Positions 56,771-63,325 of a DNA stretch of 64,000 nucleotides are shown here, in pieces. Numbering within the stretch: the stretch's first letter is position 1; the number at the start of each line of letters is the position of its first letter. The stretch is from Bacteroidetes bacterium RIFCSPLOWO2_12_FULL_35_15 (GTDB lineage Bacteria; Bacteroidota; Bacteroidia; 2-12-FULL-35-15). The translations under genes and the position numbers were made by a program. The notes under the pieces were generated by a model that saw nothing but the letters and a program-made list of their open reading frames with translations, did not search any database and was not told where the DNA came from. The stretch is taken from NCBI GenBank assembly GCA_001769385.1, contig MEPB01000037.1:12241-76240 (forward strand), given 5' to 3'.

Positions 56771-56845
56771 TATTCTCTTTTTTAATGAAAGGCTCTGCAG
56801 TATTGCTTTAACTACACAAGTCTAAGGTGGGAGGAAAAAAATGAG

Positions 56846-56876
56846 AAAGGACGCTAGTTTTAGCGTCCTTTTTGTT
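56846..56876. terminator. Rho-independent terminator shared by infB (+) and the convergent minus-strand operon
   Basis: ggacgcta-gttt-tagcgtcc with aaa upstream and tttttg downstream. Confidence 0.7.
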
Positions 56877-56894: not shown

Positions 56895-57641
56895 TTACGA
56901 TCTAAGCCAAGTAAATACCATTTTTAAGTAGCTATTTAAGTAATCATCCAAGTTCTGTGATTTCAAGCCAAAATCAGCTAGCTTTCTGTAAGGACTGCCT
57001 GGGGAAGGAGTCGCAAAGCATTCTATTGAACCGCCATTACTACATTCAATAACCCTCAAAAAAGGTTTTTTTACTAAATCGGGATTGCCATTTATACTTT
57101 GAAGCAATGTGTTTTGAAGTTCAAATGATTTGCTTTCATTCATACTTAATGTTGGATGCTTATTAAAAAAGGCACTATTTAGAAACATTTCATTCATTAC
57201 ACCCTTAGAAGAACACAATATTTTAATCGTTTGTCCCTTTTGGGGGTATTTAAAAAAAAGATGATTGTATGTCCTTTCCGTTAAATGTTTGTCTAAAGCA
57301 GATTTATCCTTCCTGTTGCAGCTGAATATCATATCAGTAATACCAATTGAATTTTTTTCAAGGCTATTTTTTATTGAAGCGACATTTTCAAGAAAGATTT
57401 CTGAGTCGAAAAATGTTTGATACCAATACCAAAACCTATTATTTGAACTTCCATAATAGAATTGGATGTCGCCATTTTTGACTCTTTCAATGGTCTTAAG
57501 CGCATTTAATTTCCCATCATTAGAAAAGGTCAATGACCACGTAGGAAAGCTACCTAGAATTATTTTTGAATGGTTTAAGGTAGGACTATCGAAATCTATT
57601 CTCGGATGAAATTCCCGTAAATTATTTGAAGTATTTTTCAT
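56895..57641 (-). CDS. Hypothetical protein, last gene of the operon; weak resemblance to UDG-superfamily motifs
   Basis: Overlaps the upstream gene by 20 nt. N-terminal ILGSFPTWS resembles UDG motif A (GxxPG-type). C-terminal FATPSPGSPYRKL resembles motif B (HPSPLS / NPSGLS). Not confirmed. Confidence 0.5.
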   Translation of the reverse strand: MKNTSNNLREFHPRIDFDSPTLNHSKIILGSFPTWSLTFSNDGKLNALKTIERVKNGDIQFYYGSSNNRFWYWYQTFFDSEIFLENVASIKNSLEKNSIGITDMIFSCNRKDKSALDKHLTERTYNHLFFKYPQKGQTIKILCSSKGVMNEMFLNSAFFNKHPTLSMNESKSFELQNTLLQSINGNPDLVKKPFLRVIECSNGGSIECFATPSPGSPYRKLADFGLKSQNLDDYLNSYLKMVFTWLRS

Positions 57642-59400
57642 ACAGATCTTCTCCCATTTTTCTGTAGTGACTGGACTTATATCCTTTGAAAGGGAAATTG
57701 CTTACATCGGCAAATTTACTCTTATATAACTCAATGTCTCCATGTTTTTTATTTTCGATCAGAATCCTTAAGCAATTAATAACACCGTTGATAGTAGTGA
57801 CACTCAGAATAGTATTTCCAGCAACTCTATTCACTTTCCAATTTTCATTGTCAATATTGGCTTTCAAACCGATAAAAATGTTTCGAATTTGCTCGACACA
57901 AAAAGCTCGATATTCATCAAGAAGTTTATAGTCATCCTTCTTTTTTTTCAAGTCCTCCTTATTCTTTTTTACCCAAAAACTGAATAAGCTATCTACACCT
58001 TCAAATTTCACTAGTGGTTTTAGGCCAAAGCTTATTATAGTGGTGGTTTTCAATTTAGATTTTTCAAACCAATATTCTTCAAATAGACCACCTAATGGAC
58101 CGGACTCGTTCAATTTGCTAATTATATATTTTGAAATTGATGCCGTTGAAAACGGATTCATCATAAACTCAATTTCATACTTTAATTGTGGAGAAGCCCC
58201 AGACTGATTAGAGTTAATTTCCAAAAATAATTTAGCTTCAAATTTTATCCTTTTTTCTTCAGGTTCGTCTTTGGGATAAAGGATACCTGTAATCAATAAA
58301 TTCTGAATTCCCCTCAAGCCTGCAATAGATTTTTCATAAACATCATCTCCTTCATGATATGAATATGTCCTATGCTGGCCATCAATAATTCCTATAATAT
58401 TCGCTTTACTTGATATTTTAATGGTGGCTGGCTGTACCCTTGTAATACCTGGATTTGTGAAATTTCCTTTATTGTCTATTGACAATTCGCTACCTCCTTC
58501 ATCTAATATTCTAATCTCATTAATTGGTAAAGTTGTTATAATATTATTGATGAATACACGTTTTTCATCGTGCAAATATTTGCGCATACTTTTTATTTTT
58601 TGGGCAACAAACATCCGCTGATAAAATCCAATGTTATCCTTATTTCTCCAACCATCCCTTCTCAAGACGTAGGCTCGTTTAATTAAAGATTCAGCATCAA
58701 TATAAAATGAAACAATCTTATAGCCCTCTTTGAAAGAACTATGTTCTTCAGGCAATATATGCCCAGAGAATTCATCTACAGTACTCTTTGACGCTTGTTT
58801 TATATTGTCACCGATCTTCGAAAAGTCAATTCCAAGAAAATCAAAAAACTCATGTTTTGTGGACTTCTTTATGATTTTGGCGATGCTCACAAAATACTTT
58901 ACAACAGGGTAATCAAAATAATGAATGTTTGTTACCAAAACCTTATGTTCATTAACTACCTTGCGTTTTGAAGCATACAGAATTCGAATTTGCAATTGAT
59001 TTGCAGTGTATTTATTGCTGGTAACGCTTTCAAAGACTTGTTTTAAGGACTTAAACTTGTCCTCAGTCAAAAGGAATTTGAAAAAATTAGCGGGATTTAA
59101 ATTTATTTTATCGTAAATAATTTTCTTTTCCTTCAAATGGATTCCTGGATCACCAATGGTGTATTCAGTAAGTACAAAGATATTTTCATAATAGAAGATG
59201 TCATCGATTTCTGACTCACGGCTGTCATAAGTAAAATGTTTGCCATCAATCCCTGGGACTCTTGAAAATCCGATATTCGTCATCAAGGTTCTTATCTCTC
59301 TGGCTTGTTGATCTTGTTCTCTTTTTTGTTCCTTTTCTTGATCACTGAGTTTTTTCTTCCCCTTCTTTTTACCTTTCGCTTTTGTTTTTTTTGTTTTCAT
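57622..59400 (-). CDS. DGQHR-motif protein (DndB-like, ParB/Srx-fold superfamily) with Lys-rich N-terminal tail
   Basis: Contains ANIIGIIDGQHRTYSYHEG, the diagnostic DGQHR motif of the DndB family. N-terminus MKTKKTKAKGKKKGKKK. 592 aa. Confidence 0.7.
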   Translation of the reverse strand: MKTKKTKAKGKKKGKKKLSDQEKEQKREQDQQAREIRTLMTNIGFSRVPGIDGKHFTYDSRESEIDDIFYYENIFVLTEYTIGDPGIHLKEKKIIYDKINLNPANFFKFLLTEDKFKSLKQVFESVTSNKYTANQLQIRILYASKRKVVNEHKVLVTNIHYFDYPVVKYFVSIAKIIKKSTKHEFFDFLGIDFSKIGDNIKQASKSTVDEFSGHILPEEHSSFKEGYKIVSFYIDAESLIKRAYVLRRDGWRNKDNIGFYQRMFVAQKIKSMRKYLHDEKRVFINNIITTLPINEIRILDEGGSELSIDNKGNFTNPGITRVQPATIKISSKANIIGIIDGQHRTYSYHEGDDVYEKSIAGLRGIQNLLITGILYPKDEPEEKRIKFEAKLFLEINSNQSGASPQLKYEIEFMMNPFSTASISKYIISKLNESGPLGGLFEEYWFEKSKLKTTTIISFGLKPLVKFEGVDSLFSFWVKKNKEDLKKKKDDYKLLDEYRAFCVEQIRNIFIGLKANIDNENWKVNRVAGNTILSVTTINGVINCLRILIENKKHGDIELYKSKFADVSNFPFKGYKSSHYRKMGEDLYEKYFK

Positions 59401-59415
59401 CGAGAAAGAAAAATT

Positions 59416-60318
59416 TTATGGTTTTGCCTTATTTATATCAGTAATTGTACTCATTGCACTAACTACATCCTTGGCATAGATAATGTTTTCTTGTCCAGCC
59501 TTGCCTTCATAAGTAAAATTAAACAAGAGAGAAATAATTCGTTTCCTTCCTCCTACAGACAATTTCTCATCTCCGTAGACGTAGAACTCATGTTTGTTCA
59601 GAGTATAAAGGTTTTGAGAGGCCTTTTTTATTACAACCTTAGTAACACCTATAATAGACTTTTGCTCATATTTAAGCTTGTCAATAGTTCCAACACTTGC
59701 TTCAAATGAAGCTTTAAATTTAAGCGCAGCTGGATCATTCAAATTGCCTTCAATAACATCGTGTAATAGGGTTTTATATTCATTTAAATCTTCACCTTCT
59801 GCAACTGGCCAAGTGAGAAATAATGAAAAATTTCTGCTATATTTTTTTTGAAACTCAAAAACAGATTTGATTGTGGCATCGAAAGGATACTTTACACTGG
59901 CTTGCATTCTCCCATCAAAATCCAAATTTACTACATCGACAGGAAAGGTTTTATTTTTTCCACTAATTATGAAACTATAATTGGCTGCAATGTATGGGAT
60001 GAAGTCCGCTTCCACTTTGGCTTCGATGAGTTTTTCACTTAACTTTCTTTGAATTTTTGGATCTTTTTCGAAACATCTCACATTTCCTTTGATAATTCTA
60101 AAATTAGGGGTTCCATCAACGGATTTTGATTCTGCTTCTTCCCAATCAATCAGGCCTTCATCTTTGAACAGATGCAAATCTTGCATTGCCTCCGCTGGAA
60201 ATGTTAAAATACTGAAGTCACGTTCCTGGTCACCGAATATTTCTTTGGCGAAGGCAACCCACTTTTTTCTAATAAAGTCTTTTGGGCTGGAGTTATGTTT
60301 ATAGACGGCTTTAGGCAT
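59416..60318 (-). CDS. Hypothetical protein (300 aa) in the operon
   Basis: Tightly spaced between the GHKL ATPase and DGQHR genes. VDVVNLDFDG is faintly Rossmann/MTase-motif-I-like but unconvincing. Confidence 0.5.
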   Translation of the reverse strand: MPKAVYKHNSSPKDFIRKKWVAFAKEIFGDQERDFSILTFPAEAMQDLHLFKDEGLIDWEEAESKSVDGTPNFRIIKGNVRCFEKDPKIQRKLSEKLIEAKVEADFIPYIAANYSFIISGKNKTFPVDVVNLDFDGRMQASVKYPFDATIKSVFEFQKKYSRNFSLFLTWPVAEGEDLNEYKTLLHDVIEGNLNDPAALKFKASFEASVGTIDKLKYEQKSIIGVTKVVIKKASQNLYTLNKHEFYVYGDEKLSVGGRKRIISLLFNFTYEGKAGQENIIYAKDVVSAMSTITDINKAKP

Positions 60319-60324
60319 ACAGTA

Positions 60325-61974
60325 TTACTTGGCTTTCCATTCATCTATTTTTTTATAAAATAGCTCCTTTAGTTTTTTTGCATCACCTCGACTTTCATTG
60401 AAAGAATTTTCGAATATGATAAAAATGGTTTGCAAATATTCCCAATCACTTTTTTTAAACTTATTTTTAGCAACAGAATCAATCTCAATTACAGTCCCTT
60501 TATTTTTTGTCGTAACAATTTTAACAGGAGAAACTTCTTCTTCCTCCTTCTTTTTTTTACTTCCTTTTTGGGGAGTTGCAGGTTTAGGCTTTGATGAATA
60601 CGTAACCTTCTTAGCTTTTAAAATTCGCTTTGTGGCATCCTTCTTAACCTTATCCTTTTTGGCATCTCTAACATTTTTCCCGTCATCATATAATTTAAAA
60701 GCAATCTTAAAGATGTCCTCCTTCAAATATTCATGTAAAAAGTTCTGTAAAGCAATATAATCTGGGTGGGTTACCCTGAACGATTTTCGATCAATATTCA
60801 TTGCATCCTCAAGACCCTGTTCGATATATAATTCTCCTGAGATCCAGTTCCTAAATATCTGTTCCATATAAACAGGATATCTTAAAAAAGTGCCGTCAAA
60901 CCCAAATCGCTCTGCAATAGGAATGTTTTTTATTCTAATAGCTACACCATTTAGTTCACGAGGAATTAACAAACTGTTTTGTATGTAAAAATATCCCTTG
61001 AGAGCAATGAAATTATCACTATCGCCAATTCTGATTTTCTTTTTAAATGATGTATGCTCTGCTCTCTTATTTTTATCCTTGGGAAAGTAAATTGGCTTTT
61101 TAAGATACATGCCATCAAAATCCACCTTGAAGTTGAATTTTTTATGAAGAGAAACAATTTCATCAATTGTTTTATCCTTAACTCCTTCAATCGGCCCACC
61201 ATCAATATATTCAACGGGAATGTAAGATGCTAAATCAATAATGAACTGCATATACTCACTATCGTTTTCCCAAGAGTAGACGCTTTTGCTAGCGTGATGT
61301 GCAAGCAGATCTTTCATAGTTTTAAATGAAAGCTTAGCAAAGCCCTTGTTTTTTTCTTTTACCGCTTGAGCTTTATATGTCTCATCATTAAATATCTTTA
61401 AAACAGGCTCTTTTAATCCTACCAGCCTGATTGCTGTAAAGTGTTCGTTCTTATCTTCTTTTTCATTTACTAGGGTAAACTTCCCTTTCAAATAAGTATC
61501 TTCATCATCGCTTTTAGATGGCTTACTATCAAGAATTTCTTTGAAATCAATCCTTGCAGTAAACTTTATCGCTTCACCTTTCTTTGAAGATACAACTTCT
61601 AATACATCACATATCTCATTTACTGCAATAAAACCGATACCTATTTTTCCAATCAATGGTCTGCCAGCTGCAGAAAATTCACCTCTGTTTCGTTTGTTAG
61701 ATTTACTAATCCATGCAAAATTGTTATCAAAATCCTCTGCATTCATTCCATTTCCATCATCTAAGATCGTTATGCTATCTTCGATAGGTTTCATTCTAAT
61801 AATCACATTTTGCGCATCAGCATCAAATGAATTATTTACTAATTCTTTGATACAACTTGCAGGAGAGCTGTAAATACCAGAGCTCAGATCATTTATAATC
61901 TGAGAATGTACTTTAATCTCTCCAACTTGTTCGATGTCCAGAGCAAGAGTTATGTCATTATTTTTATCGGTCAT
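60325..61974 (-). CDS. GHKL-superfamily ATPase (MORC/MutL-like Bergerat fold) with Lys-rich C-terminal tail
   Basis: N-box IKELVNNSFDADAQNV, G1 ILDDGNGMN, G2 GKIGIGFIAV within the first 120 aa. C-terminal KKDKVKKDATKRILKAKK...KGSKKKKEEEE. Confidence 0.7.
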   Translation of the reverse strand: MTDKNNDITLALDIEQVGEIKVHSQIINDLSSGIYSSPASCIKELVNNSFDADAQNVIIRMKPIEDSITILDDGNGMNAEDFDNNFAWISKSNKRNRGEFSAAGRPLIGKIGIGFIAVNEICDVLEVVSSKKGEAIKFTARIDFKEILDSKPSKSDDEDTYLKGKFTLVNEKEDKNEHFTAIRLVGLKEPVLKIFNDETYKAQAVKEKNKGFAKLSFKTMKDLLAHHASKSVYSWENDSEYMQFIIDLASYIPVEYIDGGPIEGVKDKTIDEIVSLHKKFNFKVDFDGMYLKKPIYFPKDKNKRAEHTSFKKKIRIGDSDNFIALKGYFYIQNSLLIPRELNGVAIRIKNIPIAERFGFDGTFLRYPVYMEQIFRNWISGELYIEQGLEDAMNIDRKSFRVTHPDYIALQNFLHEYLKEDIFKIAFKLYDDGKNVRDAKKDKVKKDATKRILKAKKVTYSSKPKPATPQKGSKKKKEEEEVSPVKIVTTKNKGTVIEIDSVAKNKFKKSDWEYLQTIFIIFENSFNESRGDAKKLKELFYKKIDEWKAK

Positions 61975-61976
61975 TC

Positions 61977-62927
61977 TTAATATAAAAAGTGTTCTGGTTT
62001 TCTGGCAACAGCCATGTTAGCGGTAGGCACAAACACAGGTTTTCCCATTTCACGAATTTTTAAATTTCCTATTTTGTACTGACTCATTCTTTCTTCGCCA
62101 ACTCGAATGAATTTTATATACTTTTCTATTCCTAATGAATTTCTTTTGTTCTTGAGAGCCGCGATCATTGTTGACCCAACTCCCGCAAATGGATCCAAAA
62201 TCCAATCATTTTCTTTTGTTAAAGCAAGAACACACCTTTCTACAAGTTCTATTGGGTACTGGCAAGGATGAATTGTTTTTTCTTTATGATTAGCCTTAAC
62301 GTTAGGGATTTCCCAAATGTCCTTCTCCCATTCACTTCGTACAATTTTCCAAACATCAGAAGGATTCTTTCCTTTAGGATTACCCGAAATCTGCCCTTTC
62401 TTTTCACCTTTGTAATATGTTTTTCCAGGATACTTTGCTGGCACTCTAACATCATCAAGATTAAATGTATATTTATCCGATTTCGAATACCACATTATAG
62501 TTTCATATCGCCCAGAAAATCTTTGCGAAGCATGAAGTCCATGCTCAAAATGCCAAATAATTCGATTGCGAAGAATCAGTTTTTCTTTAGCGAAAATATC
62601 GTGATAAAAAATATCCAAAGGCACAACCTCTTTTGTTTTCGGATTTATATAATTACCAACCTGCCAGCAGATGCTGCCTTTTTTATCAAGTAGAGTAACT
62701 AATTTTTTAATAATTGATTCAATTTCCAGTTTATAATTTTCTAAGGAATTAGACTTTTCATATTCCTTATCCATATTATAAGGCGGGGAAGTCATAATAA
62801 GTTTAAACTTCTTTTTCTGCGCAATCAATTTATCCAAATTTTTATCCGCTACTCCATGAATATAATCTGCAGCAACAACCCTGACCCTTCTTTTAGCCTT
62901 TGCTTGTTTTTTTACTGCCTTCGCCAT
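61977..62927 (-). CDS. Beta-class amino DNA methyltransferase (N4-cytosine or N6-adenine)
   Basis: Motif IV IMTSPPYN precedes motif I ILDPFAGVGST (beta-class order), plus HPCQYP motif. Lys/Arg-rich N-terminus MAKAVKKQAKAKRR. Confidence 0.8.
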   Translation of the reverse strand: MAKAVKKQAKAKRRVRVVAADYIHGVADKNLDKLIAQKKKFKLIMTSPPYNMDKEYEKSNSLENYKLEIESIIKKLVTLLDKKGSICWQVGNYINPKTKEVVPLDIFYHDIFAKEKLILRNRIIWHFEHGLHASQRFSGRYETIMWYSKSDKYTFNLDDVRVPAKYPGKTYYKGEKKGQISGNPKGKNPSDVWKIVRSEWEKDIWEIPNVKANHKEKTIHPCQYPIELVERCVLALTKENDWILDPFAGVGSTMIAALKNKRNSLGIEKYIKFIRVGEERMSQYKIGNLKIREMGKPVFVPTANMAVARKPEHFLY

Positions 62928-63064: not shown

Positions 63065-63325
63065 CTAGTTCACGTGTAAGGTATCTAGGAAACTCCCTTT
63101 TAACTTTAACCCGAATTCCTTTATGAGATCACCCAAGTTCATTTCAAATTCTTCAGCCAGTTTATAACACCAAAACAATGTTGGACTAATCTCCCCACGC
63201 TCAAGACGAGATATGTTTTGGTAATTATTCCCGACTTTAGAAGCCAGATGTGCCTGTGGCCAATCCTTTTCAAGTCTCTTTTTTGCACAGTTAAGGCAGG
63301 AAAGGAATGCAAGGCCTTTTTGTTT
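63065..63325 (-). CDS. XRE-family HTH reading frame (controller-like), with no in-frame ATG/GTG/TTG start; possibly frameshifted or degraded
   Basis: Minus-strand frame reads CAKKRLEKDWPQAHLASKVGNNYQNISRLERGEISPTLFWCYKLAEEFEMNLGDLIKEFG, a textbook XRE helix-turn-helix layout. The ORF-track ATG at 63369 is in a different frame. Confidence 0.4.
   Translation of the reverse strand, partial: KQKGLAFLSCLNCAKKRLEKDWPQAHLASKVGNNYQNISRLERGEISPTLFWCYKLAEEFEMNLGDLIKEFGLKLKGSFLDTLHVN

Follow-up and report, generated by a model that had tools for sequence, protein, structure and literature searches.

The last gene of an operon that begins with a DNA methyltransferase (MTase) in Bacteroidetes bacterium RIFCSPLOWO2_12_FULL_35_15 raises the question of whether a small protein with motifs reminiscent of uracil-DNA glycosylases (UDG) belongs to that superfamily and, if so, what its role might be next to a DNA-modifying enzyme. 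The gene lies in a stretch of 64,000 nucleotides of contig MEPB01000037.1 (positions 12,241 to 76,240 of the forward strand), hereafter the window, and its product is here designated UDGL, for UDG-superfamily-like glycosylase:

56895..57641, minus strand: UDGL gene, an open reading frame (ORF) with an ATG start encoding 248 amino acids, last gene of the operon

Five genes on the minus strand make up the operon, in the order MTase, GHKL ATPase, a 300-residue protein (P300), DGQHR protein and UDGL. A preliminary description of this DNA had regarded UDGL as the terminal gene, in agreement with the fact that its ATG overlaps the stop codon of the DGQHR gene by 20 nt (57622-57641) and that a terminator hairpin stands 22 nt beyond its own stop codon. 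It had also noted two UDG-like motifs and put forward a possible glycosylase effector which, coupled to the MTase, would form a restriction module. The results presented here support the assignment of UDGL to the UDG superfamily, and from the distribution of its homologues we conclude that it is an optional, portable accessory and not a dedicated effector of the GHKL/DGQHR operon.

Taken by itself the sequence of UDGL provides weak evidence of UDG membership. A search against Pfam gave no match at E≤1, the gathering threshold of the Pfam UDG family (PF03167) not being reached, and the family 6 (HDG) model TIGR04274 was matched with E=1e-5 over residues 60-143 only, at 25.7 bits as compared to a cutoff of 80; UDGL was rejected as a bona fide HDG orthologue. 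A phmmer search of the PDB with the single sequence returned an acetyltransferase at E=0.31, judged to be spurious, and nothing meaningful besides. The evidence becomes strong when profiles are compared. An alignment of UDGL with 36 homologues (A1, 37 sequences, 43–73% identity) retrieves 372 representative proteins at E≤1e-3 among 1.8 billion searched, and of 73 sequences sampled from these relatives 65 match TIGR04274 (best E=5.6e-24) and 10 match PF03167 at E≤0.01 (best 7e-7); the link of UDGL to the Pfam UDG family is thus a transitive one, made via its relatives. In a comparison with hhalign, A1 aligns with A3, an alignment of short-form relatives of about 200 residues, with a probability of 99.9 and E=2e-33. 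The A3 profile in turn matches 2L3F, a putative UDG of M. acetivorans, with E=3.3e-11 over the full length of 2L3F, the alignment taking in motif 1 (ILILGSLPS), YYGNPGNDFW, the L-W-D strand end, the S-R-E-G-S-x-D hairpin and motif 2 (VLPSSSGA), and it matches MUG of D. radiodurans (DrMUG, 2C2P) with E=0.002. The A2 profile, in which UDGL is itself included, gives E=1.7e-11 against 2L3F and a marginal E=0.055 against DrMUG.

The structural model of UDGL, computed with AlphaFold2 (AF2) from A1, is consistent with these matches. It has a pLDDT of 94.9 and a pTM of 0.91, and it consists of four core strands and flanking helices in the strand/helix alternation expected for the UDG fold, that is, a four-stranded parallel sheet within an α/β fold. 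When compared to the PDB with Foldseek, its top match is 2L3F, which is also the sole one with a probability above 0.2 among the matches listed. The two motifs of the preliminary description, ILGSFPTWS and TPSPGSPYRKL, are indeed present at residues 28-36 and 211-221, and their likeness to UDG motifs A and B extends to their location, as in the model they stand at the C-terminal ends of strand 1 (residues 26-30) and of the last core strand (residues 205-210), as motifs A and B do. Both the predicted fold and the invariance of the two motifs across the 37 sequences of A1 bear out that part of the description. Profile matches and model together support UDGL as a member of the UDG superfamily, and we read it as an undescribed long-form family with insertions, sister to family 6 (HDG) and to the MUG2 class but belonging to neither. 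The segments that carry its conserved residues are the following:

57603..57614, minus strand: E-x-H-P motif (E10, F11, H12, P13), ahead of strand 1
57534..57560, minus strand: motif 1 (A), ILGSFPTWS, residues 28-36, at the end of strand 1, aligning with ILILGSLPS of 2L3F via the family profile
57429..57461, minus strand: FYYGSSNNRFW, residues 61-71, with the Y-G-x-x-x-N-x-F-W motif common to family 6 and MUG-type enzymes
57291..57344, minus strand: GITD...R110...S114-A-L-D117, end of strand 2 and β-hairpin, with the acidic residues D103 and D117
56979..57011, minus strand: motif 2 (B), TPSPGSPYRKL, residues 211-221, after the last core strand

Within A1 the invariant positions are G30, S31, F32, P33 and W35 in motif 1 and P212-S213-P214-G215-S216-P217, R219 and L221 in motif 2, together with G64, S65, N68, W71, D79, T102, D103, R110, S114, D117, Y125, N126, S145, K146 and N150. 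Across all 73 sequences of the wider family H12, G30, W71, D103 and D117 are invariant, and P13 is nearly so. Some of these positions have counterparts in other members of the superfamily. N68, which is the Asn of the N-x-F-W signature of family 6, aligns with N39 of 2L3F, which we take to be functionally important in that family, and the same region matches YYANPENKFW of DrMUG. D117 aligns with Asp93 of DrMUG, and it is exactly at this position that the chains of 2C2P and 2C2Q differ, 2C2Q being a D-to-A mutant; Asp93, in the loop after strand 2, has been described as a novel catalytic residue of this MUG2 enzyme (PMC5128194). The position of D103, at the end of strand 2, is that of the base-reading Asn in other UDG families and of E147 in the anti-phage glycosylase Brig1 (PMC5387724, PMC11078745). 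As for motif 2, the S-P-S of the short-form relatives aligns with VLPSSSGA in 2L3F and with LPSTSP in DrMUG.

Other features set UDGL apart from the better known families. Motif 1 of MUG/TDG enzymes (family 2) is GINPG with a catalytic Asn, at whose position UDGL has a Phe (G30-S31-F32-P33-T34), and motif B of UDGL is devoid of the His found in families 1 and 4. For the E-x-H-P motif we know of no counterpart described in UDG families 1–5, and its invariant H12 may substitute for the His missing from motif B. Altogether, the pattern of conservation speaks for UDGL being catalytically active, with a chemistry of the MUG2/HDG kind. By homology, UDGL would be a monofunctional DNA glycosylase in which the target nucleotide flips into a pocket formed by the motif-1 loop (G30-S31-F32-P33), the start of the helix at N68-x-F70-W71, T102-D103 and the hairpin residues R110, S114 and D117, while the P212-S-P-G-S-P217 loop would pinch or intercalate the DNA. 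The attacking water might be positioned by D117, the equivalent of DrMUG Asp93, by N68, or by both, D103 would read the Watson-Crick edge of the base, and the product would be an abasic site.

In respect to known families, HDG of family 6, represented by 2L3F, is the best match to UDGL in both sequence and structure. Both have a motif 1 of the G-S-x-P type that lacks the catalytic Asp/Asn, and they share the Y-G-x-x-x-N-x-F-W motif, a T/W-D at the end of strand 2, the R...S..D hairpin and a motif 2 of the P-S-x-S type. However, UDGL is about 90 residues longer than 2L3F (161 residues), with a helical insert of about 25 residues between motif 1 and YG..N.FW and extra helices and a hairpin at residues 150-205, and it further differs from family 6 in its PSPGSP motif B and its N-terminal E-x-H-P. 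Its occurrence is also distinct, being patchy, limited to Bacteroidota and set in defence or MTase neighbourhoods, which is not a housekeeping pattern: at the cluster level 88 homologues were found, all of those with a taxon name being Bacteroidota, and none was found among 2.9 million viral contigs of IMG/VR. Isolates that carry UDGL include Pedobacter sp. AW1-32, Belliella marina and Mucilaginibacter frigoritolerans. DrMUG (2C2P/2C2Q) resembles UDGL in the Asp93/D117 position and in the NxFW and T-D motifs, but it is a chromosomal uracil repair enzyme and its motif-1 region falls outside the alignment with the relatives of UDGL. A Rosetta-stone search for fusions of UDGL yielded only P0090, a protein of 887 residues among the A1-profile matches that has a DEAD/ResIII-like N-terminal region of about 700 residues followed by a glycosylase domain starting after motif 1; this helicase-glycosylase fusion could be real, but gene decay or an assembly artefact is the more probable explanation.

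The neighbourhoods of UDGL homologues were analysed in 22 genome and 17 metagenome loci, complemented by individual look-ups, the neighbours being labelled with phmmer and Pfam. Twenty-nine loci were informative (at least 45% identity to UDGL, the window counted), and in 22 of these an N6_N4 MTase is encoded in the same cluster, in every case with a T-S-P-P-Y motif IV, while the other seven have no MTase nearby. A linkage of UDGL to MTases far above chance is thus supported. The partner MTases belong to three unrelated architectures (316, 427 and 888 residues), found in different restriction-modification (R-M) or defence modules:

Type A (L008, L009, L011-L014, L017, L018, L022, L032): 427-residue MTase with a DGQHR protein, with or without GHKL and P300
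Type B (L007, L010, L015, L016, L023, L031, L033): 316-residue MTase with a BglII/BamHI-like restriction endonuclease (REase) of 151–154 residues and a protein of about 420 residues, with or without an SNF2 helicase and a NOV_C protein
Type D (L035, L038): 888-residue MTase with a protein of about 330 residues

Three further loci probably belong to type B. Two of them, L029 and L041, are short contigs on which a divergently oriented 316-residue MTase is the only partner gene present, and the third, L034, is cut off upstream of SNF2 and NOV_C. UDGL always occupies a border of the cluster, where it is either transcribed away from the MTase, with 90–150 bp in between, or the last co-directional gene. 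UDGLs that are 50–60% identical adjoin the three unrelated SPPY architectures, and in a neighbour-joining tree the glycosylases of types A, B and D are intermingled, with no congruence between tree and partner type, which indicates that UDGL has re-assorted among its partners. Intact copies are also found with no MTase within 10 kb (L019, L020, L021, L024, L025, L039, L040). Among distant clades, some adjoin KAP NTPase/DruA/GHKL clusters with no MTase (L024-L026) and another a Type III R-M system with a DPPY Mod (L046); others are neighbours of topoisomerase IB (L021, L039), and a few are located outside any defence setting (L019, L020). The partner modules likewise occur without the glycosylase: the DGQHR protein has at least 944 homologues in several phyla, as compared to 88 for UDGL, and all four sampled modules composed of an MTase of the 427-residue family with SPPY (MT427) and a DGQHR protein, from Bacteroides xylanisolvens, Pseudomonas, Dyadobacter and a deltaproteobacterium, are devoid of UDGL.

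The motif IV common to the partner MTases bears on their chemistry. In β-class amino-MTases SPPY is typical of N4-cytosine enzymes such as M.PvuII and M.BamHI, and DPPY of N6-adenine enzymes such as M.RsrI, M.MboIIA and CcrM; also, the cognate MTases of BglII/BamHI-like REases produce N4-methylcytosine (m4C), and it is with REases of this kind that type-B MTases are paired. The SPPY partners therefore probably make m4C. Among solved structures, those nearest to either MTase type belong to N6-methyladenine (m6A) enzymes with DPPY (M.RsrI, M.MboIIA), so that the assignment is one read from motif IV.

Regarding function, the reading we favour is that UDGL is a base-excising accessory of methylation-based restriction or defence loci, comparable in role to the Brig glycosylases; we hold it tentatively, as falling slightly short of probable, with catalysis, substrate and role all being predicted. 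It is based on the defence-island setting, the MTase-free defence partners of the outgroups, the patchy distribution and the precedents of Brig1, Brig2 and Brig3. UDGL would be a portable module repeatedly recruited to the edge of restriction or defence operons of Bacteroidota, almost always those with an SPPY MTase. Its target would be a non-canonical base, in all likelihood one that is modified in the invading DNA and thereby evades the methylation-sensitive nucleases encoded alongside, and its excision would widen the defence range of the locus. Brig1, Brig2 and Brig3 are indeed UDG-superfamily anti-phage effectors, with Brig1 homologues occurring near BREX/Pgl and Brig3 acting in an operon with a partner, BapA, and the logic proposed for UDGL, a small stand-alone glycosylase of defence islands making abasic sites in modified phage DNA, resembles theirs. 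UDGL was nevertheless rejected as a member of the Brig1 family: Brig1 was the Brig glycosylase covered by our sequence comparison, and hhalign of A1 against it gave a probability of 0.2 over 7 columns, the Brig1 sequence being derived from a supplement with possible character-recognition errors. Moreover, motif 1 of Brig1 is GLNPG, unlike the G-S-F-P of UDGL, and the linkage to SPPY MTases is a feature of UDGL, none having been reported for the Brigs. A number of observations weigh against a role in defence. The nearest characterised relatives of UDGL, HDG and DrMUG, are repair enzymes; no relation to Brig1 is detectable; none of the families in PADLOC-DB v2 matches UDGL at E≤1; and some copies have neighbours that are not defence-like (L019 and L020 among them), such as an efflux pump, a TonB receptor and also topoisomerase IB. 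In addition, so consistent a preference for SPPY MTases, across three architectures, is not what one would expect of a defence gene that was purely a hitch-hiker; it hints at a chemical link to methylation which a Brig-like model does not explain.

Were UDGL functionally coupled to N4-cytosine methylation, its separate acquisition by three unrelated SPPY architectures would be accounted for, and we consider such a coupling possible but doubtful. It could be of two kinds, the first UDG-fold restriction glycosylase with an attack on cytosine that m4C blocks, or a Vsr-like guardian against lesions caused by amino-MTases (for example 3-methylcytosine, or an N-adducted or deaminated cytosine). The latter, a repair glycosylase that removes a lesion arising from the carriage of an N4-cytosine MTase, be it a deamination product or the result of off-target alkylation (3-methylcytosine or some other cytosine with an N-adduct, for instance), seems rather unlikely to us. 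UDGL would in that case travel with such MTases whatever their sequence specificity. Vsr, itself a small repair-type enzyme, does so with C5-MTases, the co-evolution of ALKB2 with DNMTs is a further parallel, and 3,N4-ethenocytosine is a known substrate of MUG from E. coli. This idea agrees with the repair function of the closest characterised relatives (HDG of family 6, DrMUG), with a linkage to SPPY chemistry across three unrelated architectures and not to one nuclease partner, with the frequent divergent arrangement in which UDGL and MTase share an intergenic region of 90–150 bp, with the incongruent tree, which fits a function independent of specificity, and with the stand-alone and topoisomerase-IB-adjacent copies, which fit DNA repair. 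Yet the resemblance to Vsr is a conceptual one, as Vsr has another fold and chemistry, being a nicking endonuclease for T:G mismatches that accompanies C5-MTases, while the partners of UDGL are SPPY amino-MTases. Furthermore, the outgroups adjoin defence modules devoid of an MTase (KAP NTPase/DruA/GHKL) or a Type III Mod with DPPY, and most MT427 and DGQHR modules go without UDGL, which indicates that UDGL is dispensable to the MTase. Deamination of m4C gives uracil, which is within the reach of ordinary Ung, and the m4C product is itself deduced from motif IV in MTases whose closest solved structures are m6A enzymes.

The other kind of coupling comes nearest to the restriction module of the preliminary description: UDGL would recognise a specific sequence and remove one of its bases when unmethylated, host sites being protected by the neighbouring MTase, and the glycosylase would be a UDG-fold analogue of R.PabI. 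R.PabI does not have the UDG fold and is absent among the 50 Foldseek matches of UDGL listed. Nine loci present an MTase and UDGL in divergent pairs like those of classic R-M systems (L009, L010, L012, L013, L022, L023, L029, L032, L041), and the case of R.PabI, whose gene is paired with that of a DNA MTase, demonstrates that a DNA glycosylase may serve as the R component (PMC4357717). In contrast to R.PabI, which has one cognate MTase and sequence specificity, UDGLs that are 50–60% identical pair with three unrelated MTase families and their tree is incongruent, so that matching specificities are unlikely; a one-to-one co-inheritance with a single MTase lineage is thus not what is observed. 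Considering also that some intact copies have no MTase within 10 kb, that further nuclease candidates are encoded in the clusters and that the protein is small and single-domain, with no sequence-reading domain evident in its AF2 model, we regard a methylation-blocked restriction glycosylase as improbable. The nuclease candidates of the partner modules are the BglII/BamHI-like REase, the GHKL protein with its BbrUII/HgiDII-like N-terminus and the DGQHR protein, and these, together with the widespread occurrence of MTase and DGQHR without UDGL, have led us to reject UDGL as the sole effector of the operon in the window. Of the original proposal, the association of a glycosylase with an MTase holds (22 of 29 loci), whereas the notion of a restriction pair finds no single cognate MTase and an incongruent tree; a restriction effector of the operon is unlikely given the MTase-free loci, the other nuclease candidates and the MTase and DGQHR modules that lack UDGL. 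Very improbable, in our view, is that UDGL is a catalytically inert UDG-fold DNA-binding or sensor subunit which recognises a flipped base and recruits or regulates the neighbouring ATPase or nuclease proteins. A motif 1 (G-S-F-P) without the Asp/Asn of families 1 and 2 and a motif B without the His of families 1 and 4 would be compatible with it, and UDG-fold proteins with altered chemistry do exist, such as UdgX (PMC4787834), but D103, D117, N68 and H12, including the position of DrMUG Asp93, are invariant in 37 to 73 sequences, and the occurrence of UDGL with many partners, or alone, would be odd for a dedicated subunit. The better reading is that of an accessory glycosylase effector, or a repair enzyme, attached to methylation-based defence, the glycosylase activity being that predicted from sequence.

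That UDG-superfamily glycosylases can act as anti-phage effectors is already known, the anti-phage DNA glycosylases Brig1 (2024), Dag1/2 and Brig2 (2025) and Brig3 (2026) having all come from functional or structure-guided screens, an origin which reflects the fact that sequence models miss anti-phage glycosylases. To these UDGL adds a UDG-derived family confined to Bacteroidota that escapes both Pfam and PADLOC and has an unusually sharp genomic signature, next to SPPY amino-MTases in at least three restriction or defence architectures; a literature search turned up no family of this sequence type and no systematic linkage to SPPY MTases. Should UDGL be a defence enzyme, it would point to unknown base modifications in Bacteroidota phages and provide a new base-specific reagent; should its tie be to the chemistry of m4C, UDGL would become the first partner, in repair or in restriction, that is specific to N4-cytosine methylation, and the biological costs of this modification are, to our knowledge, poorly understood. 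The analysis also delineates three modules as candidate defence systems: MT427 with DGQHR; GHKL with P300; and the array of BglII-like REase, P417, SNF2 and NOV_C.

In the window the remaining features of the operon are arranged as follows:

63065..63325, minus strand: XRE-type helix-turn-helix (HTH) open frame of 86 codons, immediately upstream of the MTase start, which includes QNISRLERGEISPTL
61977..62927, minus strand: β-class N6_N4 DNA MTase, 316 residues (PF01555, E=7e-51; motif IV TSPPY at residue 47, motif I DPFAGVGS)
60325..61974, minus strand: GHKL (HATPase_c_3) ATPase, 549 residues, with an N-terminus resembling BbrUII/HgiDII restriction enzymes
59416..60318, minus strand: P300, 300 residues, function unassigned by family search (weak match to the PP_RS20740 family)
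57622..59400, minus strand: DGQHR (DndB/DpdB-like) protein, 592 residues (TIGR03187 DGQHR, E=1e-15; PADLOC DpdB, E=2e-7)
56844..56873, no strand assigned: bidirectional intrinsic terminator, a 13-bp hairpin followed by a T-run, common to the operon and the convergent infB

This operon is a mosaic, in which a type-B MTase (E=1e-127 to the MTase at L010:2393-3343) precedes the GHKL, P300 and DGQHR genes of type A: elsewhere these three accompany a different MTase, of 427 residues, and the 316-residue MTase family is found with BglII/BamHI-like REases. P300 is always paired with a GHKL gene, both being present in L008, L012, L014, L017 and L018. Base composition bears no mark of recent transfer (32–34% GC in the operon as compared to 31–40% in the flanks), and no tRNA was found near the operon. 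The XRE-type HTH frame at 63065-63325 (minus strand) has no ATG, GTG or TTG ahead of the HTH, and may be a decayed controller (C) gene of an R-M-like operon.

Some observations on the other loci concern the partners in their own right. At L016:4496-10029, and also in L007, L015, L031 and L033, an SPPY MTase, a 154-residue BglII/BamHI-like REase, a protein of 417–438 residues with no Pfam match, an SNF2 helicase, a NOV_C protein and the glycosylase are encoded in this order, as a recurrent co-directional array. The type-B MTase of L007 (L007:4409-5349) is split into two overlapping ORFs of 188 and 174 residues, from either a frameshift or a sequencing error, and the REase-like and glycosylase genes are intact. 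More distant homologues, with 36–45% identity, abut a further candidate defence system at L024:870-8295, L025:10728-16072 and L026:4748-9959, a cluster without an MTase that encodes a DruA-like protein and a KAP-family NTPase as well as two HATPase_c_3 proteins. Bacterial topoisomerase IB genes at L021:8947-9978 and L039:5890-7035, loci that are independent but come from the same clade, are each located directly upstream of a glycosylase homologue and co-directional with it.

Finally, the four sampled loci with MT427 and DGQHR (L047, L049, L050, L051) each contain an SPPY MTase of 417–429 residues and a DGQHR protein of about 590 residues as a self-contained two-gene module, which adjoins AbiE, GmrSD or Type I R-M genes and, in Bacteroides, is located inside an integrative element. 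It looks like an uncharacterised R-M-like defence module. In the deltaproteobacterial metagenome-assembled genome, a 196-residue Pfam-UDG protein (L051:12862-13452), matched by the wider-family profile with E=8e-11, is encoded 3 kb downstream of MT427 and DGQHR, with BrnT, Fic and RsgA genes in between.

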